From a virus, in IMG/VR virus record IMGVR_UViG_3300045988_058019, positions 39,546-103,545 of that record: a DNA stretch of 64,000 nucleotides. One strand, 5' to 3'. Positions 3,020 to 58,164 of the stretch are shown in pieces (position 1 is the stretch's first letter; each line of letters opens with the position of its first letter). The notes under the pieces are model-generated. The model did no database searches. It saw only the letters and a program-made list of their open reading frames with translations, and was not told where the DNA came from. The translations under genes and the position numbers were made by a program.

Positions 3020-3670
3020 TCATTCTGCATAATCATTCTATTTATATTTCCATATATAACCATACGCAGACAACTATCTACCTTTGCAACAATCTCTTAT
3101 TCCTTCTTTCCTTCTATTTATTGATCTTGCAGCAAAACTTATACTGTAGAAACTCCTTATATACACACCATCTAACGTATATTGATCAACAGGAATTGTT
3201 CTATTTTTATTTATATAGTTGCTATTTTTTATCTTAACCGCTGGAGAAGGATTTTTAATATTCACCGGCCTTGGTTTACCTATTCTATTTTTAACTATCT
3301 TTGCTATAGACTCTTTAGTGTGGTGCCAACCGGCGTTATTTTTTGCACATTTTGCATTGTTATATTCAGGATTTAAATCTAAATATTTTTGTTCTATAAA
3401 CAAAATAGTGTCTTTTACTGGTTCACAATATTCTAATATTGCAAATTGGAAAGAAGTCTGTCCATATTTATTAAAAGCAGATTGAAGGTGCTTATTACCA
3501 TGTTTATCATGAAGTAATTTGCGTAAATGATCTTTTAACCTTCTTCTTACACAAAGTGAACTTCCAACATATGTTTTATTGTTTAGTATATTTTTAATTA
3601 TATATACTCCAGATGTTGAAGGAATCGTTTGTATATTTTCTCTATTAAAATTTAAAAATTCGGTACTCAT
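3020..3670 (-). CDS. GIY-YIG homing endonuclease (2 in-frame TAG)
   Basis: N-terminus GVYIIKN..KTYVGSS..RRRLKDH carries the GIY-YIG motifs. The ORF-track ORF stops at TAG 3074. Reading on gives CCKGRQLSAYGYIWKYKQNDYAE then TGA at 3020, restoring the YIWKY C-terminal motif seen in the paralogs at 30459 and 41379. The start ATG overlaps the upstream TAA (TAATG). Confidence 0.75.
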
Positions 3671-9757: not shown

Positions 9758-10780
9758 TTAAGGTTTCTATTTTGAAAATCTTCTTGCATAAACTAATAGC
9801 TCTTTATAGCGTAATATTTTCTTTAGTAAGTTAATACCATTACAATGCTTAAGCCAACCTATGTGACTACACATTTCTTGTTTGTAATCTTCTACTGTAA
9901 TATGCTTCTTTCTACCTAATCTAGCAGCTTTCCTACACATGCTACGCTTAATATTCTTCCTTACTAAAGTATAGTTATGTCTTATTACATAACCTACAAA
10001 TGATATTCCTCTATCTTCTACTTTAAATACCTGATAGTTATCTTTAAAAGATAATTTTAAAGTAGCAATATACTACTTCATTTCTTCAAACAATTCTCGT
10101 AAATACTCTTTATCCTTATGTAGTATTACTATATCATCTGCATATCTGAAGTAATATTTAACCTATTTATCTTCTTTAAGCCAGTGGTCAAAGTAAGTAA
10201 GATACAGATTAGCAAAGAACTAAGATAAGTAATTACCAATAGGTACACCTTCTGCTGAATCTATTATCTCATCTAATAGCTATAATAACTTCTAATCCTT
10301 TATCTTCTTTCTTATTATGCTCTTTAATACTTCATGGTCTATACTAGGATAGAACTTTCTGATATCTAACTTAAGACAATAAGTAGTATTATCTACATCT
10401 TTTAAAGCTTCTTTAACATTATGTAATGCTTCGTGAATACCTCTGTGTTTAATGCAACTATAAGTATCTTTAATAAAGATAGATACCCATATAGGTTCCA
10501 TTATATTCATTACAGCATGATGTACTATTCTATCTGGATAATAAGGTAATCTAAATATTAATCTTTCTTTAGGTTCTCTAATTATAAATGTATTATATTC
10601 AGAAGTTTTATACGTACCGTTAATTAAATTCTGCTATAGTTTTTTAAGTAATTCTTCTTTATTCTAGTCAAACTCTTTGATATCTTTTCTACTAGATTTA
10701 TTTCTTCTAGCTTTCTTATCTGCTAAATATAAATTGTCTAAGCTAACAATCTTATCGAATAAATTATTATATCTCTTCAT
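9758..10780 (-). CDS. Diversity-generating retroelement reverse transcriptase (8 in-frame TAG)
   Basis: Hand translation shows RLPYYPDRIVHHAV, DIRKFYPSIDH, GVPIGNYLS[TAG]FFANLYL (DGR-type IGxxxSQ motif), YFRYADDIVIL (YADD at 10133-10144) and GISFVGY. It is in frame with ORF-track 10292-10510 and ends at TAA 9758. Confidence 0.9.
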
Positions 10781-10916: not shown

Positions 10917-11012
10917 GTGTCCTGACATTAGCATTGGAATTGTCTAACTCATTGTTAGAATTCAAATTGAACAAACCTGCATTAGACTCATTGTCTGAGT
11001 TACTGCTGATTT
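10917..11012 (-). repeat. DGR template repeat (TR)
   Basis: Aligns to 11155-11250 at a constant offset of 238 nt. All roughly 27 differences are plus-strand T (minus-strand A) in this copy. In the VR frame it reads as an AAY-rich string (ISSNSDNESNAGLFNLNSNNELDNSNANV). Confidence 0.9.
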
Positions 11013-11041: not shown

Positions 11042-13603
11042 TTAAAACCAGTTTTCTTCAGATTCTATAGAATCTATTTGTTCGTAATCTTCATCATTTA
11101 ATTCCAGTGTAGCTGGAGCAGCTGGCAATGCCGGTTCACCATAGAAGGTAATTCGAGTCCCGACAAGAGCATGGGAACCGTCCAACCCACCGAGAGAATG
11201 CAAAGCGAACAAACCCGCATGAGACCCATGGCCCGAGCCACCGCCGATTAGAAGAGTTCTAGGTGTAGCTGTAGCACTAGTCCAGTGATAATCACAATAA
11301 TAAGTTGTAGCACTAGCTCCATTTCCTACTACAGTTGGGAATAGATCTGCCTAATTATTATTAACGAGTTTTTTTACATATTGACCAGTAATTGTACTTT
11401 CTTTAAAGTCTTGTAACTCATAACCTGCTGCAATTAATTGCTCTGCAGTAGGATTAGTTCCTCCTTCAAATGTACCAAACTTAGTATAATCTTTGCAGAT
11501 ATATACACTATTGTCAGTACCAGCAACTACTACATCAATTACATTCTTCCATACATGACCAAATGGATTCTCAATACCACGGTATCTAGGAACATTAACT
11601 ACCTTAGTACCAGTAGATGCGCCTTCTGCATTAGTGTTAGTATGAGTATATTCAATTATACCAGTACCATTACCTAATGAATTAGTAGTACCACAAGGTA
11701 CAAAAGAATATGTAGTAGCTCCATTTACAGTTACAGTTCCTGTAGTTACTCCATCACCCAAACCACCTTGATGATAGCCTTCTGCAGTTAAGCTAGCATT
11801 AAATGCTTTCTGACTATTCAATGTAGCATATTCTACTACGAATAACCAAGTAAGATCTCTGTGAGCATCATAAGTATAGATATTCCAGTTGTTAGTTCTA
11901 TTGTTATTTCTAGCCATAGTCTGGAATTCTGTTCTAGTTTTGCTTACTATAGGAGCAGCATTACGAACTTGAGTTCTCAATAAATTATTATGACTTGAAC
12001 TATCTAGATTTACACTTCCCTCATATGCACCAATATATTTCTTTTCTACTTTAGTATAACCAGGAAGATTGTATTCACTCATACGAATTTCAACTGTATT
12101 ATCTGGAGTAGCTATAAGTAATCTATAATGTTCTGGAATCTCTACAAAAGCTTCTACACCAACCCCACTACTATCTTGAGATGAGGTAGTACCGTCTTCC
12201 CACTTAGTCCAGTCATCTGCTTTTAAGTATTTCTTAGTATTATCTGTATTGCTGATAGTACACCCTCTCATCTTACTCTGGATAGGAAGTGTTTTATGCA
12301 TCTCCATATTACCAGTACGTACACCATCAGAACTAGAACTATTAGCTAAGTCAAACTTAACTCCATACCACAGTTCATTTTCATTTCTACTAAGCTTACC
12401 AATCTCTTCATCAAGAGTAACAGCTGCACTTATAGCACTAGGACTATCAGCTAAGTAATTAGTACTTGATAAGTCAGGCATTTCATTAGTTTCAGTTAAA
12501 CCTACCTTATCATTTACTTTAAGTAAAGTAGTTCTAAGTTCTGTAATATCTTCATTTAATGCATCTTCTAAGCTATCGATATTACCTTGTAATTCTGTAT
12601 CTTTCGCTTTTAATTCGTTTACAGCTGCTTCTCTAGCAGTCTTCTCATCATTAATAGCATCGGGAAGAGTTTCATTAATAGCTAACTTTTCAGCACCAGT
12701 CATTAAACCAGCAACAGTATTAGTAGCAGGAGTAATAGTAATATCAGCTAAAGTAGATTCTACATATCTACCATCACTCTTCTCTACTCCAGTAAGACTG
12801 ATAGTAATGTTATTAACATCTGTTTGATCTAATTGGAATGTACTCAGCAAGTTATCAGGCATAGAGTTAACTACATTCTCCATAGCTTTACCTTTACCAC
12901 CATCATAAGCAGTACCAGTAATATCACCAATAATAATAGCATTAGAATCGATGTGTACCCATTGTGAACCGGACCATCTAAACTGATAACTTACTTCACC
13001 AGGAGTTACATTAACATAGATTTTATCTCTTTCACCTACTATAGGAGTTTCATGTTCAGCATCTGCATATAACTGTATATTCTAAAGTACTCCAGTAGGA
13101 GATACAGTATAAGTAGCATATGCATCCATTACATCATCAACATACGAAGGCAATTGACTAGCAGGTACTTTACCATTACCATCAAGTTCAGCAAGACCAT
13201 TAGGTTGACCCTTTAATGCTTTGAAGTCTTGTAAGTCTTCATTTACATCATCAATCTTAGTATCTAGTCTATCTACTTGAGCTTTTACAGCAGCATCACC
13301 TTTATTAATGGCATCTACTATACTACTGCCTTTAAAATAGTTATTACTACTATTATCAGGCAGAGATATAATATCACTATTCTTATCATAGTTCAAACCA
13401 ACAGATTGTACAATCTCTTTAATGTGAGTCCATTGGTCTACATTAGCATCTCTATTCAGTGGTATCCATTTCTTAAGATCAGGACTATATGACTTAATAA
13501 CATTACCAGTACTGTCTGTTGCTAAGTCAATCCAATAAGAAACCTCTTTAGGATTTGGAGCATACTTAGATGCTATGAAATTAGGATTTTCTTGTTTAAC
13601 CAT
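11042..13603 (-). CDS. Tail fibre protein, DGR target with C-type-lectin-like variable C-terminus (2 in-frame TAG)
   Basis: Fragments 13082-13603 and 11351-12883 are in frame, and the gap 12884-13081 was hand-checked open. After TAG 11351, 102 codons run to TAA 11042: ..YYCDYHW..LLIGGGSGHGSHAGLFALHSLGGLDGSHALVGTR.. The fibre motif GQPNGLAELDGNGKVPASQLPSYVDDV is present. Confidence 0.8.
11155..11250 (-). repeat. DGR variable repeat (VR) inside the tail-fibre C-terminus
   Basis: See TR. All 61 non-adenine template positions are identical, and 27 of 35 TR adenines are substituted. Confidence 0.9.
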
Positions 13604-15415: not shown

Positions 15416-16321
15416 TTACTCTTTAAAGAATCCACTAGGAGCACTTACTTTATTAAATACTACACTATCAGTAGTAGCTAATGATAATTGAGCTCTAGTA
15501 ACTACATGAGGATTATCTCTTCTAGCTGCATGAGTATCAATAGCATTCTGTGCATTAGTAATTAACTGTTTAAGCTCATTAATTTGGGATTGCAAATTAT
15601 TATCTGCATTAGTTCTATTAGTAATCTCTTGATTAATTAACTCAGTAAGATCAGTAACTTTACCATCTACATAAGTCTTAAGCTCATTCTTAGCTTTAAT
15701 AATCTCACTATTTACATAGCTTCTTAAATCACTAATCTATTGGTCAATCTTACTATCTAACTCTTGTATATTCTGAGTTAATTCAGTAATCTTCTATTGA
15801 ATAGAACTTAAATCACTACCTACTATATTAGTTATATCTTGACGTATCTCTTCAATATTAGAATTGATATTAGTAATATCTTGATTTATATCATCAATGT
15901 TGTTATTAATATTTGTAATATCCTACTTGATATTATTAACATCGCCTTTGATATCATTAATCTCATTTCTAATATTGTTAATCTGAGTAGTTAACTCTTC
16001 TACTTTCTGATTAATATACTACCACAGTTTATTAACTTCCTCTTTCAGTTCATCTTTAAATTCAGCTAATTCATTTCTGATTTCAGTTATAGAATCATTA
16101 ATAAACTGTTCTATCTAATCAAGAGCTCTATTAATATAATCAATGATAGCATCTACTTGCTTATCATTCAGATCTAGCGTCTCCCATGTATTAGTATCAT
16201 TACGATAGTATCTAATACAACCACCATAGTAATTAGATGTAACGTCAATCCAATAATCTACTTCTAGAGGATTAGGCTACGTATCTGATGCTCTAAATCT
16301 AACTATCTCTCTCTGTAACAT
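15416..16321 (-). CDS. Coiled-coil fibre-like protein, 301 aa (about 6 in-frame TAG)
   Basis: The N-terminus ..PNPLEVDYWIDV.. resembles the DGR-target N-terminus. A long N/I/D-rich heptad-like region follows. TAA lies at 15416, and length is a multiple of 3. Confidence 0.5.
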
Positions 16322-27247: not shown

Positions 27248-28222
27248 TTAGGCAATTGTCTTACCAGCAATAAATGACTGAATACCTTTATCTACAATAG
27301 AATTAACTAAACTAGGACAATAAACTTCCGTAGTCAACGGAGTAGTCTTGATGTACTGATTATCATTGCTCAAGTACAGGTTATCGTTTTCGATGATAGC
27401 ATAGTCATATTCTGCATCTTCTACTACTTTACGAGCCTGTTCAACAATAGGATATGCACCAGTAAATACGTGACCTTTATAACCCATGTTACGTACTTCT
27501 GCATCACGTACTTGCTTCCAATAACCCTTACCAGGATTACCAGCAGTCTTAACAATCGTAGCACCTACAACTGCCTTAGGCTGATTAGCAAGCAATGCGC
27601 CAGGGATAGTCTCATACAGAGAAGCTTCCATAGATACAACGCTGTATTCACTCAAAGAGTAAACACCTTCGTTATCATCCTTCGGCATAGCAGTCAAAGT
27701 CAGAACTGCAGCAGAAGCAGAAGCCTGTACTCTACGATTCTTATGAGCATTGATCTTCTTCAACAGAGCATTTACTAAATCTGCAGGGGTAGTAGTTTCA
27801 GCATATACTTCATAAGTATGAGTAAACTGCCAAGCGGCTTCATACATATCCTTATAAACAATACGCAAAACGTAACGATTACCAGCAATGATAGTAGCGT
27901 TAGTCAAAGTGATCACAATCTTTTCTTCAACAGGAGCTACATATTCGCCAATTACTGCAGACGGTTTAGAAGCTTTCTGAATTTCAGTAGAGAAATCAAT
28001 ATTAGCTTTCTGTGCTACCGTACCATCAGGCATAGTAACATTCATCTTTTCACCTGCTACACCTACATACAGAGAGTTAGCATTTACTGCATCAGCAGCA
28101 GTCTTAATAAGAGCCTTATTCTCATCGAACAAAGCAACATCACCAACAGCTAAAGCATCCACTGTAGTGTAAGAAGCCGGAGCTTGTTTTCCAATCAGAA
28201 CTGAGTGTACTGAAGTTATCAT
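27248..28222 (-). CDS. Probable abundant virion protein, 324 aa (no TAG, own terminator)
   Basis: Intact ORF with visibly GC-richer codons and a strong terminator immediately downstream. Family not recognised. Confidence 0.6.
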   Translation of the reverse strand: MITSVHSVLIGKQAPASYTTVDALAVGDVALFDENKALIKTAADAVNANSLYVGVAGEKMNVTMPDGTVAQKANIDFSTEIQKASKPSAVIGEYVAPVEEKIVITLTNATIIAGNRYVLRIVYKDMYEAAWQFTHTYEVYAETTTPADLVNALLKKINAHKNRRVQASASAAVLTLTAMPKDDNEGVYSLSEYSVVSMEASLYETIPGALLANQPKAVVGATIVKTAGNPGKGYWKQVRDAEVRNMGYKGHVFTGAYPIVEQARKVVEDAEYDYAIIENDNLYLSNDNQYIKTTPLTTEVYCPSLVNSIVDKGIQSFIAGKTIA

Positions 28223-30458: not shown

Positions 30459-31469
30459 TTAATTAGATTGTTCAGTTAGTTGTTCTTTATATTTCCAGAT
30501 ATACTTAGCGTTGTTCCAAGCACGTTTATTATTTGGATCTATTGGATTTTGCAATTGTCTTTGTATACCTCTTCTATCACAACCAGATTCTCTAGATGCT
30601 TCAACAATAGAAACATATTCTTTAATTATATTGCCATCTTTATCATATTGATTTATAGCTTTAGCTACTTTTAAACCATTTTTAATGGCAATACTCTTTT
30701 GTTTTTCAGTTACCTTTCTATTCTTTCTAGATTCTAAATCAGCTTTTCTACAAGCTTCTGATATAGTAGGCTTCCAATCAGGGTCTTTAGCAAATAAACT
30801 AGCTGGAACTGTTTTAGGTACATCGGGGTAGTCTTCTTTGTAAACCCAAATGTAAGGATTTACTTTAGAACCAGTTATATTTCTACCCTTTAACGCATTA
30901 GATAGAGTTGTAACCTGTATTCCTGTTAATCTAGACGCTTCGTTTACACCACAATACTCTGATATAAATTTACCGTCTTTAGTGTATTGTAGCACTGGTT
31001 TTCTTCTAGAAGAACCAATATTTCCGGAATTGCGATAAGCTTCTCTTGCTTCTGTAATTATTTTTCCAGCTTCAGATAGTTTAAGTCTAGTGGCTTCGGT
31101 AACTTCTCTACCAATAGCTTTTTGACGAATCTTTTCTTTGGTTTCTTCAGTATGGCGTCTACCAAAAGTTCCGTCTCCGCCTTCAGTCATATTATAACCA
31201 AATTCATCTTGCAATGATTTATATTCGGAAATATAATATTGTTCTTTCTCGGTGAGTTCTTCCCAACTATTGCAGAAATCTATAAGTTCTATTGAGAAGT
31301 TCTCTTTTCCATATTTTCTTATAGCATTATGTAACTTGAAAGGGCATCCGTGCTCGGCACTATAGATGTGTTCTTTCCACCGAGCACTTATACCTTTACT
31401 TGTGATACCTATATATACTTTATTATTAACCTTGTTTGTTATTTTATAAACATCATATGAACGCATCAT
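30459..31469 (-). CDS. GIY-YIG homing endonuclease (no TAG)
   Basis: VYKITNKVNNKVYIGITS..ARWKEH, YNMTEGGDG, repeated K..S....G helix modules and a C-terminal KYIWKYKE. Confidence 0.8.
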   Translation of the reverse strand: MMRSYDVYKITNKVNNKVYIGITSKGISARWKEHIYSAEHGCPFKLHNAIRKYGKENFSIELIDFCNSWEELTEKEQYYISEYKSLQDEFGYNMTEGGDGTFGRRHTEETKEKIRQKAIGREVTEATRLKLSEAGKIITEAREAYRNSGNIGSSRRKPVLQYTKDGKFISEYCGVNEASRLTGIQVTTLSNALKGRNITGSKVNPYIWVYKEDYPDVPKTVPASLFAKDPDWKPTISEACRKADLESRKNRKVTEKQKSIAIKNGLKVAKAINQYDKDGNIIKEYVSIVEASRESGCDRRGIQRQLQNPIDPNNKRAWNNAKYIWKYKEQLTEQSN

Positions 31470-31552: not shown

Positions 31553-33022
31553 TCACTCTGCTTCCATGATTAGTTCCCCACACGCACGTGGATCCCTTAA
31601 CATTATGCCCATTTCTCCAAGGAAGAATACCGTGTAGCCGTCCTTACCATTAGATCTCAGAGTATTAATAGACTTACCATAGCCAGACGGAAGAACTGCA
31701 CCACCAGTAGTCCAAGTTACGAATTCACGATCCTTACGAACTACCTTAACGATGTTAGCTTCACCATCACGTCTACCCAGATCCAGGAATGTCATACGAT
31801 ATGATTCCAGCGGTTTCAGAGTAACCGGATGCAACTTACGATTGTAAGTAATATCGTCGTACAGCGGGAAATACTTCAGAGTCAACTCGATACCATTAGT
31901 CATCTTATAAGTCTTGAACTGACCACCGAAAGTAAGACTATCACCAGAACCAGTTACAAATACAGTATCAATAAGGTTCATGTTAACTACCTTTTCCTTC
32001 AGAATTCTATCGAATTCACGGATACCCATTTCACCAGTCAATGCAACAAACTTACGTTCGTTAGTACCAAGTACATTGTAAGACAGGTCAAACAGGAAGT
32101 CTTCTAGCAATTCTGCAGTAAGATGAGTATAGTAACGTCTGTTAGACGGAGCAATCTGTTCCAACAGACCAGCACCAATAAATACTGGACGACCGTTAGT
32201 ACCCTTCAGATTACAAGAACCATCTTTGTTTACATTAGATTTCATGTAAACCAACATACGTTCACATCTCTTATACCATTCACGCAGAGCTACCCATTCC
32301 TGATAATCAGCCCACAAATAAGACTTCTTACCAGTCTTAGGATCTTGCAAAGCAATAGCCATTACTGTAGAATAAGCTGAACCAGTAATATCATAGTTGA
32401 TACGAATTGTAGTAAGATAATTACGCATCTTGAAGTGAGTATTATAGTTCAGGATATCACCCTCTTCACTGTACTCTTCAACAGCAGAAGCCAGACGAGA
32501 TACTTGGCAACCCGGTTTCAAGAGTTCTGCAGGAATATAAGAAGTAGGCTGACCATCAGCTACAAAACAAGTATATACCCACAAGTTACCATCTTGGTAC
32601 GGAGCACCTGCTACACGTACTTGGAATTCCTTATCGTCAAATTCCAATACAGCAGTAGGACCAAACCAGTTATCTTCTAACCACAGCATAATCGGTGTAT
32701 TGCCAAGACCTGCAGTTGAATCATCTGTAATAGCTGCGCCATTCCATTTTGCATCTCTAATTGTAACTGCTCTATCGGCATCAATCATTACATTCCACTC
32801 CCAGCTCGGTTGATCAATGGTCATTACATTACCAAGACCACCAGTAAGCATATCCAAAGAAGTGTTGTAACCATTATCTTTGGTACCGAATACATAGGAC
32901 AACACAGTAGCAACCTGATACGGATTCTATTGTGATGCTGCAGAAATCTTAGCGGTATCAATCAAATCACTGAACCACTTACCTTTATACAGTACCAAAT
33001 TATTCAGAATATTATTATCCAT
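31553..33022 (-). CDS. Major capsid protein candidate (crAss-like), 489 aa
   Basis: Size, visibly GC-richer codons, and position after the portal and an acidic scaffold-like gene. ATG 33022 is in frame with ORF-track 31553-32905. There is a single TAG at 32927, and the gene ends with TGA. Confidence 0.65.
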
Positions 33023-41378: not shown

Positions 41379-42359
41379 TTAAGCAGTCTGCTTGCAGTCA
41401 GACTGCATTAATTCTTTCTTCCAGATATAACCTTTACACGTCTTAGCTCTACCATTGCAAGCTCTCTGTATAGATTTATAGTCAGTGTTTACTGCCTTAG
41501 CCGCATTGTGCATTCCCATATAAGTAGCTACTAATATATCATCTAAAGTATACTGGTAAACTAAATACTTAGTAGATGCCACTCTTAGTTTTTCTTTTTG
41601 CTCTTCAGACATCTTTTTACCTTTATTCAATCCAACCATACCTTTAACCCAGTTAGAATTGCCAAAATATACTTTATTACGTTTATATCTCTTAACCAAG
41701 GTAGATTTATTCTTTTCATACTCTTCTAACCATAATGGAATGTTAGACTTTTTATCTTCTAATTCTTCTTTAGTATATGCTGCAATAAAATTATTACAAA
41801 ACGGGTGGATGTAATTATTGTTGCATAGTCTACCTATATTAGAGCGACTCAGGCCTGTAATAGTTGCTGCATCCTTGATAGTCCAAGCATATATATAATA
41901 TCTATCAATAAAATTATATAAATGTACACGCTTACCGAATGTACCGTTTGCTACTAATTTTTTAGTATTTTCAGATACTTTCTTCTTTTGCTCTTCTGTC
42001 ATCTTGAGTCCAAGAACTCCAAAATCACCACCTTTAGTACAATTGTATCCCTCTGTATAAGCGTTGTATTTTTCAATATACTCTATTTCTAATTTGTCTA
42101 ATGTTTGAATTAGTTCTAAATTAGAAATATTTGGATCTGGAATAAATGATTCCAGTATATCTACAGTAAAGTTATGAAAACCGTACTTATTTATTGCTCT
42201 ATAAATTGGTAAATCTAATTTTCCATTCTTAGCATTTCGCATATGGTCTTTTAGTCTTGATCTTAGTTTAACACTTTGACCAATATAACATTTACCATTC
42301 ACATTATTTTTGATTATATATATACCAGCTAACTTTGGATCTATATCTCTGTATGTCAT
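41379..42359 (-). CDS. GIY-YIG homing endonuclease (no TAG)
   Basis: GIYIIKNNVNGKCYIGQS..LRSRLKDH, YNCTKGGD and a C-terminal CKGYIWKK. Confidence 0.8.
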   Translation of the reverse strand: MTYRDIDPKLAGIYIIKNNVNGKCYIGQSVKLRSRLKDHMRNAKNGKLDLPIYRAINKYGFHNFTVDILESFIPDPNISNLELIQTLDKLEIEYIEKYNAYTEGYNCTKGGDFGVLGLKMTEEQKKKVSENTKKLVANGTFGKRVHLYNFIDRYYIYAWTIKDAATITGLSRSNIGRLCNNNYIHPFCNNFIAAYTKEELEDKKSNIPLWLEEYEKNKSTLVKRYKRNKVYFGNSNWVKGMVGLNKGKKMSEEQKEKLRVASTKYLVYQYTLDDILVATYMGMHNAAKAVNTDYKSIQRACNGRAKTCKGYIWKKELMQSDCKQTA

Positions 42360-42382
42360 ATCTGCAAGTTTTATATGAATAT

Positions 42383-42460
42383 TGGTTGGGGCGGCAGGGC
42401 TCGAACCCGCACATCACAGAGGTTTAGAATCTCCGGTACTACCAATTATACCACGCCCCA
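42383..42460 (-). tRNA. Suppressor tRNA, anticodon CUA (reads UAG), probable Gln identity
   Basis: The reverse complement folds as TGGGGCG-TG-GTAT/AATTGGTA/GTAC-C-GGAGA/TTCTAAA/CCTCT-...-GCGGG/TTCGAGC/CCTGC-CGCCCCA-A-CCA. It has a perfect 7-bp acceptor stem, U33-CUA-A37 (anticodon at 42425-42427), a canonical T-loop and an encoded CCA. U1-A72 resembles bacterial tRNA-Gln. The variable region looks slightly long (about 7 nt). Confidence 0.85.
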
Positions 42461-42505
42461 ATATCACGTGGATATTCTTACCCTCCACGTAAGGGTTCTG
42501 ATGGT

Positions 42506-42643
42506 TTAGAACCAAGATTTAATTCTTTGCCATAATGACTTCTTTACAGGTTTGTTCAAATATTCAGAAGCTTCTTCAATCTGTCTAAATACTTCGTCTG
42601 TATCCTTAGTCAAGTCTATAGTAATCGTAAATTTCTTATTCAT
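42506..42643 (-). CDS. Small hypothetical protein, 45 aa
   Basis: ATG..TAA ORF MNKKFTITIDLTKDTDEVFRQIEEASEYLNKPVKKSLWQRIKSWF. Confidence 0.3.
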   Translation of the reverse strand: MNKKFTITIDLTKDTDEVFRQIEEASEYLNKPVKKSLWQRIKSWF

Positions 42644-42700
42644 AATATTTTCATTTATACACTATAACGTGTTGTTAGTATTTGGTTATATTTTAATGTA

Positions 42701-43231
42701 TTATCTTGCCAACTCGTATGGATTTACTTTAGCGTCACCTTTAACTTTGCCTATAGCTACTTCTTCCGCTTTAACCATAGTCTCTAGTGAATCTATACTT
42801 TTGAGTACTCCACCTACAGAAGTCATACCGGCTAATAAATCCTTAATCTTCTTTTCGTCTAAAGTATCGTCTAATGATTCTTTATAGTATTTACTCACAC
42901 TATCTAGTTTTAGACGCATATTATTTAGCATTTGTAGAGCTCTAGTGTTAAGTAGGTTCTTATATTCCTCTTCACAAATTAGTTCTTCAGAAGTTAATTT
43001 ATAATTTTCATCATTAAATATTTCCTTCTTTAATTTAAGCTCTCTACTATCTTCATCCATACTTTGTACATAAGGACTATCCCATTTATTCATAAGTACA
43101 ATGTAACTTATTACTTTAGAAGAATGCTCCTTATCTGGCTTATCAGTATCCCACACCTTTTTAAAGCATGGGATACCTATAGCATCAGGATGTATTACTA
43201 CCTTACCACCAACAATATCAAATAATTTCAT
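42701..43231 (-). CDS. Hypothetical protein, 176 aa
   Basis: Intact ORF-track ORF ending in TAA. Confidence 0.55.
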   Translation of the reverse strand: MKLFDIVGGKVVIHPDAIGIPCFKKVWDTDKPDKEHSSKVISYIVLMNKWDSPYVQSMDEDSRELKLKKEIFNDENYKLTSEELICEEEYKNLLNTRALQMLNNMRLKLDSVSKYYKESLDDTLDEKKIKDLLAGMTSVGGVLKSIDSLETMVKAEEVAIGKVKGDAKVNPYELAR

Positions 43232-43532
43232 TTGTAAGAACTTGTTTATTATCTTCTTTATTCCATCTTATAAGATCGTCTTTAGCAAAAGCGTCAGAAC
43301 AGACTATTGGTTTTAATGTCCACTTACTACTTATAGTATCATATTTACTTAATATGAGTACAATATCTCCTAGTTTATAGTCTATTACTTCCTCTTCTGT
43401 TATTATTTGACCATCCTACTATGCTATATATATAGTTCTACATTCAAAGTTGTCAGATATATTTTTAATGCTATTAGTATCTACTTTATATAAAATAGCA
43501 TTACCGTATTGATCTATCAATAATTTATCCAT
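43218..43532 (-). CDS. Hypothetical protein, 104 aa (TAG-TAG doublet in frame)
   Basis: Hand translation gives MDKLLIDQYGNAILYK...IYIAQQDGQII...NEII then TGA. Length is a multiple of 3. Confidence 0.45.
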
Positions 43533-43533
43533 A

Positions 43534-43908
43534 TTAGCAATCACACTGTACAGGTTCACAAGCACAATCACATTCAATATCACAAGAAGTAGATTTCTTT
43601 TTTTCTTCTTGTCCCTTTTCTAGCAATCTGTTATAGTGATTCTTTACTTCATCATTTTCAATAAAGATGTACTCTGCATCACTTTCTTTATCTATAGGAT
43701 ACAATTTTATTACCATAGTGCCTTTAGTAACACTCCTTCTCTCTTTAGAACCATCTTTCTTTGTATAGATCCACTCTCCATCTTCAGGAATATACCACGT
43801 ATAGTCTACATAAAAATGATCTAGTAAGCTAACATTTTCTACTTCTTTATCGTAACTAATAACGGTACCTCTATCTACTGAACAAATATACTTAATCATA
43901 ATAATCAA
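43534..43908 (-). CDS. Hypothetical protein with Cys-rich C-terminus
   Basis: Intact ORF ending ..CDIECDCACEPVQCDC. Confidence 0.5.
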   Translation of the reverse strand: MIIMIKYICSVDRGTVISYDKEVENVSLLDHFYVDYTWYIPEDGEWIYTKKDGSKERRSVTKGTMVIKLYPIDKESDAEYIFIENDEVKNHYNRLLEKGQEEKKKSTSCDIECDCACEPVQCDC

Positions 43909-43959
43909 TCAATTAAATAACCTAAATAATATTCTTTCTATAATCTCGCTATAATTTCC

Positions 43960-44340
43960 TTAGCACGCCCCATCGGTACATTCGGATTCACATAATCTGA
44001 TTTTATTTGATAATTCTGTATTATCTGCTAAAACTTCTCTATCTCCTCCTGTATGCTCTACTTTTTTATATTCTTCATACTTCTTAAATAGCATGTCACA
44101 CATTGCATTTACCTGATCGGCTCTACTAGGTTCTGCATTACTCTTCCCATTATCTACTATAGTAGTAGTAATACTGTCAATTACATCATTTGTGAAATCT
44201 TCATAAGTAATTACGCCTTCATTAATTAATTCATCTACTTTGTTATATAGGCGCTTCATTTCCTTACTAAATGAACCATAGAGTGGTTTATTGTTTTCCA
44301 CTTCTAATTTCCACATCATTTTACTTTCTTCAATTGTCAT
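43960..44340 (-). CDS. Hypothetical protein, 126 aa
   Basis: Intact ORF-track ORF. Confidence 0.5.
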   Translation of the reverse strand: MTIEESKMMWKLEVENNKPLYGSFSKEMKRLYNKVDELINEGVITYEDFTNDVIDSITTTIVDNGKSNAEPSRADQVNAMCDMLFKKYEEYKKVEHTGGDREVLADNTELSNKIRLCESECTDGAC

Positions 44341-44767
44341 ATTCTTTGTTTTTTAACTCATTACAGATAGTATTACTTATATTTCCTGCAGCCCATCCTA
44401 CTAAGTAGGCATACGCTTCATTGCCATCTTTAAAGTCTTGTGTATATAAGCCTAATTGTTCACAAAAGTAATCCGCAACGTGTACTGCCTCATGAGGAAT
44501 CATGTCTGGAGTAATATCTTCTGCATTAGCAACAGCTATCACTATTACTCCGTATTTATTATCACTCTTACGTATTACTTTACAAGTAACCATTCCACCA
44601 TCATGTTTATCTATTTCTTGTAGTAATCTATTATATTCGCTTCCATCGTTGTTACCATATACATCAAGAAATATAAAATATTTATCTAAATCCTCAATAT
44701 TAGTACTTACAAATAATAGTCTAGGGTATATCTTAGGACTATAAACATCATACGGTTTCTTTTTCAT
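44330..44767 (-). CDS. Hypothetical protein with HEAVH (HExxH) motif
   Basis: Intact ORF. A zincin-like motif is present, with no further family assignment. Confidence 0.5.
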   Translation of the reverse strand: MKKKPYDVYSPKIYPRLLFVSTNIEDLDKYFIFLDVYGNNDGSEYNRLLQEIDKHDGGMVTCKVIRKSDNKYGVIVIAVANAEDITPDMIPHEAVHVADYFCEQLGLYTQDFKDGNEAYAYLVGWAAGNISNTICNELKNKEYDN

Positions 44768-44942
44768 ATCTTTTCTTTAATTTGAATTTACCTAAGTAAG
44801 AGAATCTAACTGGTTTAGGATCTAAGTTAGAGATGATACTATTAGTAAATCTGAACGGGCTGTTACATATTACTTCTATAATAGGATATGGTATGTTATA
44901 CTTATTACTTAGCTCAGTATATATACTCACTTGATTCCTCAT
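44748..44942 (-). CDS. Small hypothetical protein
   Basis: Intact ORF overlapping its neighbours in an operon-like manner. Confidence 0.4.
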   Translation of the reverse strand: MRNQVSIYTELSNKYNIPYPIIEVICNSPFRFTNSIISNLDPKPVRFSYLGKFKLKKRYEKETV

Positions 44943-45291
44943 TTAAATCTATCTTTTTGTAATATTTACATTCTTCTAAAGTAGAAGAATCATTAAATGT
45001 ATTAGGCCTTACTATATTGATTATAGCTTTGATATCTTCCCAATTTCTATCATTTATATCATAAACAGATTGTAGTTTGTGTATCTCCTGTTTACTGTAC
45101 TTGCGTATAGGAGTATATGCAATAAAATTATACTCATCTATCGTAAGTAGCTCTATATTAGTAGGAATGATCTCAAACTTATTATAAGGCAAATCCTTTT
45201 TCTTTAATTTATTCCATAATCTGGTAAATATGTTATATTCTTTCCAACATAATATAGTGCCAGGTCTTACTATTGTTGTTTTAATCTTCAT
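44914..45291 (-). CDS. Hypothetical protein, 125 aa
   Basis: Intact ORF-track ORF. Confidence 0.45.
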   Translation of the reverse strand: MKIKTTIVRPGTILCWKEYNIFTRLWNKLKKKDLPYNKFEIIPTNIELLTIDEYNFIAYTPIRKYSKQEIHKLQSVYDINDRNWEDIKAIINIVRPNTFNDSSTLEECKYYKKIDLNEESSEYIY

Positions 45292-45658
45292 CTTTATTTA
45301 CTCTTAATATTATAGTAATCTGTACTCTATCGCCGATTATTTCAGGTATAAGCGCCTTATTCACTACAACTTCATCTTCAATCTTACCTTTAACTAATAT
45401 GCCTTGCTTCTTAAATCTAGCTATATATCTACTAAGATTATCAGGAGTAATACCTAATACTTTCCTAATATATTTTCTGTTTTCAGTAGATATTACATTT
45501 TTACTTATGTTAGGTAGCTTAGGAGTGTTAACATCTATTGCTATGAATGTAGCTAGTAGCTCTAGCTCCCTATCAGTAAGATCAAGTATACCATTAAGGC
45601 TCTTTAAGAATTCTGTGTTTAAATCGGCTTTGCTTACGCTTTTTACCAATTTATTCAT
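45281..45658 (-). CDS. Possible winged-helix DNA-binding protein
   Basis: ..GITPDNLSRYIARFKKQGILV.. resembles an HTH recognition segment. Weak call. Confidence 0.4.
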   Translation of the reverse strand: MNKLVKSVSKADLNTEFLKSLNGILDLTDRELELLATFIAIDVNTPKLPNISKNVISTENRKYIRKVLGITPDNLSRYIARFKKQGILVKGKIEDEVVVNKALIPEIIGDRVQITIILRVNKDED

Positions 45659-46028
45659 TTGTTAACGTATCCTTAATTTTATTTAAAACCTTATTTAAGT
45701 TATAATACACTGTCTCAGCTTCTAACTTAACACAAGGTTGTATTTCACCTTTATTTGCTCTTTCATTGGTCTCTTTTAGGTTACTTTCATATTTCTCAAG
45801 TAGGTCATCAATGAGCTCTAAAGTAGCATCTACATTATACTTACTTTCATCATCAATACTTAAAAGATAACCTTCTTCACATAAGTAATCTGCAGTATCA
45901 TAATCTAAAGACATCATTCTAGTGTAATTATCTTCAGCAATGTTAAATGATACTAAACCTGTTTCATCTTCTGCTAATACATCACCTTTCTTAGCAGAAC
46001 CAAATTCCTTAATTACTTTGTAGCTCAT
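45651..46028 (-). CDS. Acidic hypothetical protein, 125 aa
   Basis: Intact ORF-track ORF. Confidence 0.45.
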   Translation of the reverse strand: MSYKVIKEFGSAKKGDVLAEDETGLVSFNIAEDNYTRMMSLDYDTADYLCEEGYLLSIDDESKYNVDATLELIDDLLEKYESNLKETNERANKGEIQPCVKLEAETVYYNLNKVLNKIKDTLTNE

Positions 46029-46119
46029 AATATTTATTTTAAATGTTTATGTATCTATAAACGGCAGATTAAATAAATGTTAAAATCTGTTAACATTTAT
46101 TAACATTTATTATCTATAT

Positions 46120-46148
46120 AATAAAAAACCCTGACTAACGCCAGGGTT
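46120..46148 (-). terminator. Rho-independent terminator
   Basis: AACCCTG / CAGGGTT forms a 7-bp stem, followed on the minus strand by TTTTTTATT. It lies downstream of the 46172 stop. Confidence 0.6.
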
Positions 46149-46171
46149 CATTCTAACAATGAGTTATAATT

Positions 46172-46531
46172 TTAAATCATATTTGATACAGCAATTATAT
46201 CATATGGTTTGACTAATTGACTATCCTTAAACAAATCAAAGTCCTTAGCAAACTTTTTATTATAAACAATAGTATCTCCTACTCTATATTCACATTCTGT
46301 TAAGCATGTGGGAATCTTCAATACTACACCTGTTGAATATTCAGATTCTACCTCCTTAGTTTCAGTTTGTGTATCATACTTATTGAAACCATCTTCATCA
46401 ACTTCACCTGTAGGAATCTGCTCTGTTATCTCTTTAGTAACCATAACTGGTTCCAAAGGCTTAACTAACACATCCTTCAACATAGTATACTTAATTCCAT
46501 TTACTACTGTTTCTAGTACTTTATCTTCCAT
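46172..46531 (-). CDS. GroES-like co-chaperonin candidate
   Basis: The pattern LVKPLEP..V.....GVVLKIP......RVGDTIVYNK....D.......LVKPYDIIAV resembles Hsp10 with an insertion. Confidence 0.4.
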   Translation of the reverse strand: MEDKVLETVVNGIKYTMLKDVLVKPLEPVMVTKEITEQIPTGEVDEDGFNKYDTQTETKEVESEYSTGVVLKIPTCLTECEYRVGDTIVYNKKFAKDFDLFKDSQLVKPYDIIAVSNMI

Positions 46532-46562
46532 AATATTCTATATTTAATACTCAAATAACGTA

Positions 46563-46772
46563 TTATTTCTTATTTTGTTTCTCTAATATTAATATATTTC
46601 CGCCATTAGAACAACAATAACGTCTAGCCAAAGTAGGACAGTTTCTATTTAAGAAATAACAGCCATCGCAACTACCTATTGGATTAGACTCTATTATAAA
46701 CTATTTGTTGTCTATTGTTACTGGTATTCTATCTCTTACTATCTTTGCTAATTCCTAATCATTTAATGTCAT
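46563..46772 (-). CDS. Small Cys-motif protein (2 in-frame TAG), paralog of 47073-47261
   Basis: MTLNDQELAK...SCDGCYFLNRNCPTLARRYCCSNGGNILILEK shares the C.GC....CP......C...G.IL pattern with the paralog. Confidence 0.45.
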
Positions 46773-47073
46773 AGTCCTTTCCTTTTCCGTGTTTATCTAA
46801 GTAAAGCATAGCTATTGCATTCCAAGCTACAGCTGCTAAGTGGTTTACTTTAGTTTCATCATCAACCTTATTACCCTTCTCATATTCAAGTAAGTGTCTT
46901 AACATAGCGGCTTTATATCGTTGGTAGCCATTCTCTAAGTTTTGCCAATTATTATCACCATATTTAATAGAACCAGCAGTATAGAGCTTCACTATATCTT
47001 CAATCTCTTCTAAAGGTAGTAAATCCCAACGTAGCTTACCGTCTTGGTAATCATTTTTCTTCCCCTCTTTCAT
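46759..47073 (-). CDS. Nucleotide pyrophosphohydrolase-like protein (dATP/dGTP diphosphohydrolase N-terminal type)
   Basis: ..GKLRWDLLP...I..V...GS.KYG..NW........Y..A..RHL......VDDET.VNHLAAVAWNA.. Called from family recollection only. Confidence 0.4.
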   Translation of the reverse strand: MKEGKKNDYQDGKLRWDLLPLEEIEDIVKLYTAGSIKYGDNNWQNLENGYQRYKAAMLRHLLEYEKGNKVDDETKVNHLAAVAWNAIAMLYLDKHGKGKDYDIK

Positions 47074-47261
47074 TATTTATCTCTTTTAAGTATAAATCCT
47101 TGAGTACATAATGAAGTAATCCTAGAAGGGCAATAATAATTATATAAATCACATCCTTGACACATACCCTTTACTTCATTCTCTACTAGAGTATAAGGCT
47201 TATTACCAAAATATACTTTCTTACCTAAGTAAGCTACTTCTCTAACTTGTTTGTGTTTCAT
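47073..47261 (-). CDS. Small Cys-motif protein
   Basis: Intact ORF carrying CQGCDLYNYYCPSRITSLC. Confidence 0.45.
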   Translation of the reverse strand: MKHKQVREVAYLGKKVYFGNKPYTLVENEVKGMCQGCDLYNYYCPSRITSLCTQGFILKRDK

Positions 47262-47420
47262 AGTAATTATATTTGTGATTATCTAAAGTAGGAGTAATTA
47301 ATATTATATCACTTTACTTAACTAGACACTGTTATCACTTTACCCCTCTTACTCCCCATATAACGTCTAATATACTGTCTTAGTTACTATTTCTTTAACA
47401 TTTATTAACATTATTTATAG

Positions 47421-48140
47421 TTATTTAACGCTATTAAGTTCATTATTTTTAATATTCATTAACGATTTTAACTTATCCGCTAACTTTCTAGCATCTGGAT
47501 GAGCTGTACCACTACCTCCATCATTTAATTTCCATTCCCATATAAACCCTTTATCTGTTTTTCTGTATCCATTGCAACATTCGCTTATATGCCGTGCCCC
47601 AGTTATACGCTGAGCTTCATTTAGACCGAAATATTCAGATATAAAATTACCATGTTTATCAAACTATAACACAGGTTTACTTCGCTTCATCTTAGAAGAT
47701 TTTGTTCTATGTTTCCCTTTATTTTTGCTAACGCGCTTTTCTATTGTTTCTTTTGTTTGTTTTAAACCCACGTGTGATAATTTCATACGTTCAATTTGTT
47801 CAGGCGTAAAATTAATGCCAGAAACCCCCTCACCACCATCAGTGATGTTGTATGATTTGTGTTCCTTTTTGTATAGTTTTATATATAGTTTTTCATATTC
47901 ACAAGCCTATTTTTTAGTCAATCCTGCATGTAATATTTCATGTATTATATTATTCCACCCGTATTTTAGTATCGCTGGGGCAAACGCGGGATGTTTCCAA
48001 TTACCATTTTTCAATTTTATAACATAATTGCATCCATCCTAACCCCAGCGTTTAATCGGATTCTATCTAGTTATACCTATATAACATTTTCCACTCGGAG
48101 ACGTATGTTTATACACGCAATACTAATTATTTTTCGTCAT
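47421..48140 (-). CDS. GIY-YIG homing endonuclease (5 in-frame TAG), start overlaps thyX 3' end
   Basis: Hand translation gives MTKNNQYCVYKHTSPSGKCYIGITRQ..YNITDGGEG..FDKHGNFISEY..GFIWEWK.. then TAA at 47421. Length is a multiple of 3. It is absent from the ORF track because it is fragmented by TAG. Confidence 0.7.
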
Positions 48141-48927: not shown

Positions 48928-49549
48928 TGTTTAATATTTTAGATTTATACTTACCGAAGAATTCTAATTCACCATTTAATCTAGCCTTAATTGCATCTTC
49001 TAAAGAAGAAAAACTGCCTAAATATATTTTTTCTTTATTACATTGTATTTCAGCATACCATTTATTTCGATCTTCTCGAAAACGTACTCCCAGTATTCCT
49101 GATGTATTGTTTTTAGGTAATTTTACTCTATTTTTTAAATTATCGGCATTATTGCATATTCTCAAATTTCTTTTTCTATTGTCTAATTTATCTCCATTTA
49201 TGTGATCTATAAGTAAATTGGTTTCGCCAAGAAGGATTCTGTGCAAATATTTCTGTTTAGAGTTTTTCACATATCCATTTTTATCTCTACACCATTTATC
49301 ATTGATTACTTTTGAGATATCTTCTTTATCTATTAAAGTTTCTGCAATTATATCACCGTCTTTATTGTAAAGATATATTATAGCATGATTTGAGAATTCT
49401 TCTATTTCGTTAGGATCGTATTTAGTCCTTAATTTTATTTTACCATATCTAATATATTGTAGGTAATGTTTTCCACATAGTATTCCAATGTTTGTATTAA
49501 CCGTTTTATTACTATTTCCACAAATACAACATATTTTTGTTTGTTTCAT
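48914..49549 (-). CDS. HNH homing endonuclease with AP2-like DNA-binding domain
   Basis: LIDHINGDKLDNRKRNLRICNNADNLKN (HNH) plus SGILGVRF..KWYAEI (AP2-like). An N-terminal CxxC..CxxH motif is also present. Confidence 0.8.
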   Translation of the reverse strand: MKQTKICCICGNSNKTVNTNIGILCGKHYLQYIRYGKIKLRTKYDPNEIEEFSNHAIIYLYNKDGDIIAETLIDKEDISKVINDKWCRDKNGYVKNSKQKYLHRILLGETNLLIDHINGDKLDNRKRNLRICNNADNLKNRVKLPKNNTSGILGVRFREDRNKWYAEIQCNKEKIYLGSFSSLEDAIKARLNGELEFFGKYKSKILNNEIN

Positions 49550-49868: not shown

Positions 49869-49931
49869 TCATAGCTCTCCTACTCAATTCATTCACAACT
49901 GTAATACCATGCACATTAAATATATCAAGAT

Positions 49932-50387: not shown

Positions 50388-50406
50388 GCCACTCTAAATG
50401 GTTATA

Positions 50407-58163: not shown

Positions 58164-58164
58164 T

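Follow-up and report, generated by a model that had tools for sequence, protein, structure and literature searches.

How can a phage maintain a functional reverse transcriptase (RT) if a glutamine that is nearly universally conserved in these enzymes is written as the stop codon TAG? This question is raised by a DGR-type RT gene located in the window, the whole stretch of 64,000 nucleotides that was analyzed. Judged by its sequence, the window belongs to the ~100-kb genome of a gut phage of the crAss-like group (Crassvirales, Suoliviridae), with Blohavirus americanus cr53_1 as a close relative. In the RT and target region, the RefSeq record of cr53_1 (NC_055889.1; Crassvirales; Suoliviridae; Loutivirinae; Blohavirus americanus; from Yutin et al. 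2021) is 95.7% identical to the window at the nucleotide level, and it has the same gene order (tail protein, template repeat, RT, holin). The answer is that the conserved RT glutamine is indeed written as TAG and is most probably decoded as Gln by the phage's own suppressor tRNA. The following features of the RT gene have to be considered first:

9758-10780, minus strand: DGR-type reverse transcriptase gene of 340 codons with eight in-frame TAGs and a TAA stop (Pfam, PDB, PHROG, RefSeq)
10220-10222, minus strand: in-frame TAG, codon 187 of the RT gene, which falls on the Q of IGxxxSQ, the motif-4 signature

The RT was assigned by its matches to Pfam RVT_1 (8e-20) and to PHROG 1423 'reverse transcriptase' (3e-123) in family scans that covered seven proteins of the window. 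Its best PDB match was the Bordetella phage bRT (8ub7, 3e-44), aligned over aa 2-308, while group II intron and retron RTs scored about 1e-17 in the same comparison. A scan against NCBIfam gave nothing above the cut-offs, and the listed matches all belonged to other RT classes. Besides the catalytic YADD, the gene encodes the motif IGNYLS-[TAG]-F, in which the DGR-clade signature (I/L)GxxxSQ is present only if TAG is read as Gln. Nucleotides 10220-10222 read CTA on the plus strand and thus TAG on the minus strand, in the context ...AEGVPIGNYLS-TAG-FFANLYLTYF... (peptide covering the TAG: GVPIGNYLSQFFANLYLTYFDHWLK), and aa 187 was aligned with the Q of bRT IGSLTSQ. Reading frame and alignment agreed with the first-pass annotation, which had placed a TAG in the RT frame at the Gln of IGxxxSQ, and its number of eight in-frame TAGs was recovered by counting in the ORF 9758-10780. 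They affect aa 39, 49, 163, 167, 187, 206, 236 and 338 (10664, 10634, 10292, 10280, 10220, 10163, 10073 and 9767, in the same order), the eighth being located two codons ahead of the terminal TAA. The frame is free of internal TAA and TGA, of which the two alternative frames contain 20 and 40. By the standard code the gene is split into pieces of at most 113 codons, and without the suppressor tRNA translation would end after 38 residues.

To what extent the residue at codon 187 is fixed was determined with 135 diverse representative homologues. The column contained Q in 124 of them (92%), the exceptions being P, S, A and G, while G182 and S186 were near-invariant. Epsilon crAss-like DGR RTs even possess GxxxSP (PMC11054128). 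The glutamine, which had been called invariant, is thus highly conserved, though not strictly invariant, and of the claim that TAG must be Gln for an active enzyme the Gln reading was retained, whereas the strict need for this residue was not. As DGR RTs do not absolutely depend on a motif-4 Q, RT activity is no strict proof of Gln at codon 187. RT codons were compared by DNA-level alignments of relatives and distant homologues; database homologues have already been translated with TAG = Q, so that for close relatives an apparently conserved Q at the protein level is a circular argument. Among 80 related phage contigs, codon 187 was TAG in 74, CAG in four and CAA in two.

In only four out of 340 RT columns (49, 187, 250 and 301) was Q the commonest residue of the 135 homologues. 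Of these, 49 and 187 are written as TAG in the window, while 250 and 301 are CAG/CAA there and TAG in relatives. Hence, all four Q-majority columns are written as TAG somewhere in the clade. A permutation test on the mean Q frequency at the RT TAG columns gave p = 0.0006. Comparison of the eight TAGs with the homologues, by which they had been expected to fall on Gln columns, was nevertheless positive only for aa 49 and aa 187. The other six reside in variable polar columns, in which the commonest residue is K, E or R; at column 167, W is commonest among the representatives. Because of this variability, only aa 187 and aa 49 are informative on the inserted residue. The full-length RT frame was maintained in 80 relatives, down to 73% identity, and the clade at 73% identity also contains several RT TAGs, which are located elsewhere in the gene.

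The distribution of TAG in the window was studied by means of two further features:

3020-40911, minus strand: recoded late block comprising TerL, portal, MCP, tail, DGR and lysis genes, with 145 in-frame TAGs in 29 of 33 genes
42383-42460, minus strand: phage suppressor tRNA with the anticodon CUA, a tRNA-Gln-type body and an encoded CCA (ARAGORN; Rfam tRNA, 45.5 bits)

The labels 'late' and 'early' were assigned by gene content, and the identities of the late-block genes were derived from PDB matches to the crAss001 portal and MCP and from the annotation of cr53_1 and cr60_1. Per 1000 codons, the late block has 11.9 TAGs; the figure is 3.3 for the minus-strand genes lying upstream of the tRNA and 1.7 for the early block. 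On the minus strand, the tRNA(CUA) gene separates genes with almost no TAG from the block that is rich in it. The four in-frame TAGs of the early block are each located 3-12 codons from the next TAA, and TAG is apparently used as stop codon in four early genes. In the RefSeq annotation of cr53_1, TAG is read through everywhere, early genes included, which makes this record uninformative on termination at early TAGs. With TAG read through, ORFs of 100 codons or more covered 87% of the window instead of 62%, and the longest ORF grew from 577 to 1199 codons. By counting TAG as Gln, the Gln content of the late genes increased from 2.8% to 3.9%, compared to 3.8-4.0% in the early genes; approximately 30% of the late-block Gln codons are TAG. 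It had been proposed that TAG couples the activity of the RT, and thereby diversification, to the late phase. This is a reasonable inference, which would hold for 29 of the 33 late genes and not for the RT in particular.

With eight out of 11 Gln positions written as TAG, the RT gene exceeds the 30% of the late genes overall (binomial p = 0.004, uncorrected). The share is low in MCP (1/12), in the gene 27248-28222 (0/10) and in the DGR target (2/25), all of which encode proteins expected to be abundant. It is therefore conceivable, albeit on balance unlikely, that the high TAG load of the RT adds a further layer to decoding as Gln, namely a gate on dosage and timing brought about by less than 100% read-through at each UAG. 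The seven internal TAGs would keep the RT at a low level, which would depend steeply on the suppressor, and would confine retrohoming to late infection, once the suppressor tRNA has built up. The several RT TAGs of the 73%-identity clade would fit this idea. However, the RT is not unique, as other small late genes are equally rich in TAG (0.62-0.75), and weaker purifying selection on weakly expressed genes gives the same pattern without any regulation. Slightly less likely still is the general assumption that the TAG load of a gene sets its expression level in this lineage and that the RT, in which one TAG even affects a residue of the catalytic site, is deliberately kept among the most TAG-dense genes. 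If it were true, full-length RT would be made only when the suppressor tRNA is abundant, and error-prone reverse transcription would take place late and at a very low dose.

Decoding of TAG as Gln, with or without such a gate, was examined for the whole window by aligning 122 of its TAGs with the codons of cr60_1, where 36 TAG, 18 CAA and 13 CAG were found. CAA is the commonest sense partner, although it is two mutations away from TAG. The substitution profile yielded a log likelihood of -222 for Q and of -308 for the next best residue, K, a preference of 86 log units, while W, Y and L were far worse. In the reverse direction, Q was the best residue as well. For single proteins, a comparison of TAG columns had been suggested also for TerL, portal and MCP. 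In the portal, three of 14 TAGs were paired with Q of the standard-code crAss001 portal and the remainder mostly with E, N, K and D. The only TAG of the MCP (aa 32) lies outside the segment aligning to crAss001 gp32. TerL gave no sequence match in the PDB, and its TAG columns were judged solely by the cr60_1 codon alignment. Another gene of the late block is also of relevance:

3020-3670, minus strand: GIY-YIG/NUMOD1 homing endonuclease gene with TAGs at 3074-3076 (codon 199) and 3038-3040

The observation that this gene regains a paralog motif after the TAG at 3074 proved to be correct, since GYIWKYK is encoded downstream of codon 199 and is shared with three paralogs.

A residue other than Gln, i.e. 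pyrrolysine, Trp, Lys, Glu, Tyr or Leu, might be suggested by the ARAGORN label 'tRNA-Pyl', by W at RT column 167 and by some TAG columns that swap with TGG, TTG and AAG, all of them single-step neighbours of TAG. This reading is very improbable, not only because of the substitution profile described above and the 92% Q in the SQ column, where none of these residues was recorded among the exceptions. ARAGORN assigned 'tRNA-Pyl' to every tRNA with a CTA anticodon in 17 related loci, and the label appears to be driven by the anticodon alone. Furthermore, the pattern of the 5' 25-mer of tRNA(CUA) matched 27 bacterial loci, every one of which is a tRNA-Gln(CTG). This result, together with the alignment, which displayed a canonical tRNA-Gln body, spoke against tRNA-Pyl. 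The variable region exceeds that of the aligned tRNA-Gln genes by just 3 nt and is devoid of a long extra arm, whose absence in bacterial tRNAs speaks against Leu, Ser and Tyr. Less in line with tRNA-Gln is the discriminator, A73; most of the aligned bacterial tRNA-Gln genes have G at this position and two have A. In E. coli, the discriminator of tRNA-Gln is G73. The gene is 100% identical to the 'tRNA-Gln' of cr114_1, and the suppressor of cr53_1 is also annotated as 'tRNA-Gln'. In two other crAss-like phages, Gln at TAG has been proven by LC-MS/MS (Peters 2022; PMC9523058).

BLAST searches with tRNA(CUA) did not reveal any match in E. coli genomes and, beyond near relatives, yielded only T-arm matches in phage records. 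When anticodon variants of the tRNA were sought in IMG/VR, only CTA was detected. No theta (HDV-like) ribozyme was found beside the tRNA in Rfam at E <= 1. The next gene is only 23 nt away, and a scan of the surrounding region for terminators and for promoters other than those of the Bacteroides type disclosed no excess over shuffled sequence.

Decoding as Gln should be reflected by the activity of the retroelement, which comprises, in addition to the RT gene, the following elements:

10919-11011, minus strand: non-coding template repeat (TR) with a core of 93 nt, located between the stop of the target gene and the RT start
11157-11249, minus strand: variable repeat (VR) within the target gene, close to its 3' end and ending 115 nt before the target stop
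11042-13603, minus strand: DGR target gene with two in-frame TAGs; the product, 853 aa long, is a tail (receptor-binding) protein (PHROG, RefSeq cr53_1)

Of the 93 positions, 25 differ between VR and TR, without exception at TR adenines. By direct reading, the TR adenines mostly reside within AAY codons in the VR frame. In 40 relatives, the VR had an entropy of 1.27 bit where the TR has an adenine and of 0.05 bit at the remaining positions; that of the TR was about 0.03 bit. The 40 contigs contained 10 TR variants and 40 distinct VRs; no two of the 32 contigs with TAG at codon 187 had the same VR. The contigs L031 and L032 have identical RT and TR sequences and also share an identical 415-nt stretch that terminates at the VR, of which 400 nt are upstream flank, and still differ at 13 of 97 VR positions. 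The retroelement is thus active, its VR being diversified at adenines in natural populations. As the activity of the RT is visible in this diversification, the reassigned codon must be decoded productively in nature.

The C-terminal 360 aa of the target protein matched PHROG 5302 'tail protein' (6e-57), and RefSeq cr53_1 labels the protein 'tail protein; similar to sulfatase, major tropism determinant'. Its C-terminal domain gave no significant match to Pfam and PDB sequences. Ligand-binding proteins targeted by DGRs usually have a C-type lectin fold, for which the resemblance to the major tropism determinant given in the RefSeq label is the only indication here. In the gap that separates the target stop (11042) from the RT start (10780), no ORF of at least 70 codons that might encode Avd was found, nor was an inverted repeat beyond an 8-nt palindrome detected as a candidate IMH/hairpin 3' of the VR. 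In zeta crAss-like phages, Avd is missing from most DGRs (PMC12386605). Since Avd is thus not universal, its absence is compatible with membership in the DGRs.

That the RT is merely a decaying pseudogene with nonsense mutations and the DGR a fossil, as one might suppose from the fragmentation of the gene by the standard code and from the truncated DGR cassettes of many alpha-group crAss-like phages (PMC7290462), is effectively refuted by TAG being the sole interrupter of the frame, by the frame kept in the 80 relatives, by the same TAG pattern in TerL, portal and tail genes, and by VR adenines that are diversified between otherwise identical genomes.

Sequence comparison thus supports both that TAG stands for Gln and that the RT needs read-through. 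The assignment is based on five independent lines of evidence, namely the alignments with bRT and the 135 homologues, the interchange of TAG, CAG and CAA, the substitution profile, the tRNA-Gln body and the ongoing diversification of the VR. Taken as a whole, the data are with high probability explained by a crAss-like phage with two codes, in which TAG is Gln in the late block including the RT. In the early genes, as in those located upstream of the tRNA on the minus strand, internal TAG is nearly absent, and the late block is recoded. tRNA(CUA) is a tRNA-Gln in which G36 is replaced by A, and in this phage it is presumably charged by the host GlnRS, like supE-type suppressors. It would compete with release factor 1 for UAG and decode it as Gln, so that the seven internal RT TAGs and the one near the C-terminus would be read as Gln and full-length RT would be produced. 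This enzyme would copy the TR RNA (10919-11011) with adenine-specific errors, and the mutated cDNA would replace the VR (11157-11249) in the tail-protein gene, by which receptor binding would be diversified. The timing of tRNA(CUA) expression and a resulting temporal limit on the synthesis of the RT are inferred.

The window is about 96% identical to cr53_1, and TAG = Gln in its RT is already known in principle, being a textbook case of the published code switch. In cr53_1, the RT is annotated as a 1023-nt CDS, i.e. translated through its TAGs, under the name 'Intron reverse transcriptase'. Unlike cr53_1, the window contains a GIY-YIG homing endonuclease gene (41379-42359) between the tRNA and TerL, and the TerL ORF encodes 693 aa, compared to about 1060 aa annotated in cr53_1. 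Phages of genetic code 15 that switch codes between early and late genes were reportedly described by Ivanova 2014, in a bioRxiv study of 2021 (10.1101/2021.08.26.457843) and by Peters 2022 (PMC9523058). They share with the window the restriction of TAG to late, structural and lysis genes, a tRNA(CUA) and Gln as the inserted residue. These studies have concentrated on structural and lysis genes, whereas the case presented here concerns an RT. For delta-group crAss-like phages, TAG-to-Gln reassignment in late genes was described by Yutin et al. 2021, whose main text mentions neither DGR nor RT (PMC7886860); the RT is likewise unmentioned in the main text of Peters 2022 (PMC9523058).

Amber codons in RT genes of crAss-like DGRs were reported in 2025 (PMC12386605). 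The zeta crAss-like phages treated there resemble the window in tRNA(CUA), in the order of target/VR, TR and RT, in the fact that Avd is mostly missing, and in GxxxSQ, but they represent another family than the Suoliviridae/delta phage of the window. In the passages considered here, no TAG is placed on the SQ glutamine, and the population diversity of the VR is not used as proof that a recoded RT is active (PMC12386605). The DGR of BPP-1 (bRT-Avd, Mtd; 8ub7) has in common with the window IGxxxSQ and YxDD, adenine-specific mutagenesis from TR to VR, and a tail receptor-binding target. Unlike the window, it uses the standard code, encodes Avd in the interval from the target gene to the TR, and possesses a defined IMH and hairpin.

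As both the code switch and DGRs of crAss-like phages have been published, the finding adds no biology of a new kind to them. Its practical consequence is that DGR finders and gene callers working with the standard code will overlook or fragment such RTs. For genetic code 15, the locus provides a clean internal control, in which a stop codon resides on a residue conserved to 92% and the activity of the enzyme can be read directly from metagenomes.

The CTA on the plus strand at 10220-10222 is a TAG on the minus strand and lies in frame as codon 187 of the following gene.

9758-10780, minus strand: DGR-type reverse transcriptase (RT), 340 codons followed by a TAA stop

The translation (...AEGVPIGNYLS-TAG-FFANLYLTYF...) agrees exactly with the first-pass annotation, which had placed this TAG at the glutamine of the IGxxxSQ motif found in RTs of diversity-generating retroelements (DGRs). 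The eight in-frame TAGs counted there were also recovered, at amino acids 39, 49, 163, 167, 187, 206, 236 and 338, the last one being located two codons ahead of the terminal TAA. Internal TAA or TGA codons are absent from this frame, whereas the two other frames contain 20 and 40. The protein matched Pfam RVT_1 (8e-20) and PHROG 1423 'reverse transcriptase' (3e-123). Among solved structures the closest is bRT, the DGR enzyme of a Bordetella phage (8ub7, E = 3e-44), while group II intron and retron RTs gave weaker matches (~1e-17). Without a suppressor tRNA, translation would break off at codon 39; RT synthesis, and with it diversification, therefore needs one.

TAG codons are spread over the whole late block (3020-40911, minus strand), where they occur in 29 of 33 genes (145 TAGs in total), among them TerL, portal, MCP, tail genes, the DGR and lysis genes. 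It follows that suppressor-tRNA dependence is not peculiar to the RT but holds for all 29, the DGR target included. ORFs of at least 100 codons cover 62% of the window if TAG is a stop and 87% if it is read through, by which the longest ORF grows from 577 to 1199 codons. Hardly any TAG is found in the early genes on the plus strand (50157-62414) or in those minus-strand genes that lie upstream of the tRNA (41379-49549). In the late genes TAG makes up 30% of the Gln-plus-TAG codons; counting it as Gln raises their Gln content from 2.8% to 3.9%, compared to 3.8-4.0% in early genes.

42383-42460, minus strand: tRNA with anticodon CUA, at the border between nearly TAG-free and TAG-rich minus-strand genes

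ARAGORN assigned this tRNA to tRNA-Pyl, an identity that we rejected: throughout 17 related loci, all tRNAs with anticodon CTA received the same label, which therefore appears to track the anticodon alone. The isotype was searched in 185,579 species genomes by a degenerate 25-nt pattern comprising the acceptor 5' strand and the D arm. All 27 matching loci were tRNA-Gln(CTG). Aligned to tRNA-Gln, the suppressor tRNA shares the body, and the anticodon loop is equal but for G36, which is replaced by A. The acceptor pairs U1:A72, G2:C71 and G3:C70 are typical of tRNA-Gln, judged by the identity elements of E. coli GlnRS. Compared with the aligned tRNA-Gln genes, the variable region has just 3 extra nt and forms no long extra arm, the absence of which in a bacterial tRNA speaks against Leu, Ser and Tyr. 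The gene matches the 'tRNA-Gln' of phage record cr114_1 with 100% identity, and the suppressor tRNA of a close relative, cr53_1, is annotated as 'tRNA-Gln' too.

The inserted residue was also deduced from codon-by-codon alignments of the read-through ORFs with those of cr60_1 (NC_055891.1), which belongs to a different genus (11,075 codon pairs). The 122 aligned TAGs of the window face TAG (36), CAA (18) and CAG (13), the remaining partners being scattered, for the most part over codons one step from TAG and over polar residues. CAA is two mutations away from TAG and yet the commonest sense partner, so that the equivalence lies at the amino-acid level. When TAG was scored against each amino acid's own substitution profile, derived from the same alignments, Gln (logL -222) was clearly ahead of Lys (-308), the next best; the reverse direction likewise put Gln first. 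Opposite the 14 portal TAGs, the standard-code crAss001 portal (7qog) has Q (3), N (3), E (2), K (2) and D, I, Y and C (one each).

For the RT itself, close homologues in protein databases show Q at every TAG, but these had been translated with TAG as Q, and the agreement was set aside because it is circular. At the DNA level, codon 187 is TAG in 74, CAG in four and CAA in two of 80 related IMG/VR contigs, with TAG occurring in both the ~95% and the ~73% identity clades. Column 187 holds Q in 124 (92%) of 135 diverse representatives (36-64% identity), besides P (3), S (2), A (2) and G (2), and the neighbouring G182 and S186 are nearly invariant. The Gln, regarded as invariant in the first-pass annotation, thus predominates without being universal. 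RTs of epsilon crAss-like phages carry GxxxSP (PMC11054128), so that this Q is characteristic but not obligatory. Q is the commonest residue in just four of the 340 columns, two of which are written as TAG in the window (49 and 187) and two as CAG/CAA (250 and 301); among 81 sequences including the window, TAG occurs at column 250 in 28 and at column 301 in 12. Over the eight TAG columns the mean Q frequency is 18% versus 2.8% overall (permutation p = 0.0006). The proposed alignment of the TAGs to conserved columns thus supported Gln at two sites, while the other six lie in variable polar columns (K/E/R; one with W commonest) and say nothing on which residue is inserted.

Eight of the 11 Gln positions of the RT are written as TAG, compared to 30% in the late genes overall (uncorrected p = 0.004). 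The share reaches 52-75% in TerL, the RT and several small late genes and drops to 0-8% in MCP (31553-33022, 1/12), gene 27248-28222 (0/10) and the DGR target (2/25). These values fit selection against TAG in highly expressed genes. TAG load could moreover lower expression and keep the RT at a very low, tRNA-dependent dose, which would agree with its TAG richness and with the low load of the three latter proteins, all expected to be abundant. However, several other small late genes are as TAG-rich as the RT, and relaxed selection on weakly expressed genes accounts for the pattern equally well.

The activity of the DGR was assessed by comparing its template repeat (TR) and variable repeat (VR).

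10919-11011: TR, 93-nt core
11157-11249: VR, 93-nt core, near the 3' end of the tail protein gene
11042-13603: DGR target, gene of an 853-aa tail protein

TR and VR differ at 25 positions, all 25 at TR adenines. In the VR frame the TR adenines reside mainly in AAY codons, the usual DGR design, and none can mutate to a stop. Forty close relatives possess 40 distinct VRs but just 10 TR variants. The VR has an entropy of 1.27 bit where the TR carries adenine and of 0.05 bit at its other positions; for the TR the value is ~0.03 bit. Two related contigs (L031 and L032), both with TAG at codon 187, are identical in their RT genes, TRs and a 415-nt stretch ending at the VR (400 nt upstream flank), while their VRs differ at 13 of 97 positions. 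Thus, we concluded that the recoded RT is functional in nature and, therefore, that all seven internal TAGs are productively decoded; a pseudogene is ruled out by this VR diversity at TR adenines. Neither an Avd gene nor a clear IMH hairpin was found at the DGR locus. Zeta crAss-like DGRs mostly lack Avd, too (PMC12386605).

A homing endonuclease gene had been put forward as independent support for read-through. It is one of four GIY-YIG paralogs.

3020-3670, minus strand: GIY-YIG/NUMOD1 endonuclease, TAGs at 3074-3076 and 3038-3040
30459-31469, minus strand: GIY-YIG homing endonuclease
41379-42359, minus strand: GIY-YIG homing endonuclease
47421-48140, minus strand: GIY-YIG homing endonuclease

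The motif GYIWKYK, which 3020-3670 has in common with three paralogs of the window, lies downstream of its first TAG. Read-through is indeed needed to reach it, but the inserted residue is not identified by this gene, as the paralogs have A or R at the TAG position. In codon usage the four do not match the genes around them. Two have no TAG even though they are located within the TAG-rich late block or at its edge, and one has five, in a block upstream of the tRNA that is otherwise devoid of TAG. cr53_1 lacks the copy at 41379-42359, which is flanked by the suppressor tRNA and TerL; in cr4_1, cr109_1 and cr114_1 a homing endonuclease adjoins the tRNA.

The roughly 2400 early codons are without in-frame TAG except for four genes with one near-terminal TAG each.

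57188-57433, plus strand: early gene
57696-58181, plus strand: early gene
58643-58876, plus strand: early gene
60577-61074, plus strand: early gene

Because these TAGs sit 3-12 codons ahead of the next TAA, they are most likely true stops, and TAG is probably the real stop codon of the four genes, in which case their products would gain short C-terminal extensions through the suppressor tRNA. In RefSeq cr53_1 the read-through versions are annotated. Upstream of the tRNA, in the block otherwise lacking TAG, two in-frame TAGs directly adjoin each other (43416-43421, minus strand; codons 38-39 of ORF 43218-43532). Instead of encoding two Gln, they could form a tandem stop that ends a short upstream ORF; the counterpart in cr53_1 is annotated as a single CDS.

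Further features were noted in the window.

within 53087-58588, plus strand: three Hatchet ribozymes, RAGATH-6, RAGATH-7 and RAGATH-9 (Rfam, all above gathering scores)
59811-59992, plus strand: permuted tmRNA (56 bits, gathering score 47)
52391-52476 and 55089-55172, plus strand: two tRNA-Leu(UAA) genes, early region

The structured RNAs form a dense cluster in the early region (53087-53237, 53300-53499, 54201-54324, 54464-54560, 56896-56997 and 58427-58588). In cr60_1, tmRNA and tRNA-Leu are annotated at the homologous place; the presence of a phage tmRNA alongside stop-codon reassignment may merit attention. Imperfect direct repeats with 21/42-nt spacing (15825-16053) within the late gene 15416-16321 (minus strand), whose cr53_1 counterpart is annotated 'keratin/vimentin-like', are probably of coiled-coil or heptad type. 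The GC skew changes sign near 50 kb (about 49600-50150), where transcription turns from the minus to the plus strand; this marks a divergent early/late junction and possibly a replication origin or terminus as well.

RT and target region are 95.7% identical to uncultured phage cr53_1 (NC_055889.1; Crassvirales, Suoliviridae, Blohavirus americanus), whose record already lists this RT as a full-length CDS of 1023 nt and the gene upstream of it as 'tail protein, similar to ... major tropism determinant'. The related IMG/VR contigs are ~100 kb each. Yutin et al. 2021 (PMC7886860) described delta-group crAss-like phages that have suppressor tRNAs and read TAG as Gln in their late genes, LC-MS/MS has confirmed code 15 (TAG read as Gln) for two crAss-like phages (PMC9523058), and crAss-like phage DGRs have been known since 2020 (PMC7290462). 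The papers examined contain neither a report of TAG on the SQ glutamine itself nor the use of VR population diversity to show productive TAG decoding. The TAG is confirmed and its reading as Gln supported; both the TAG on the SQ glutamine and the VR evidence exemplify known biology and do not amount to a new kind of system.
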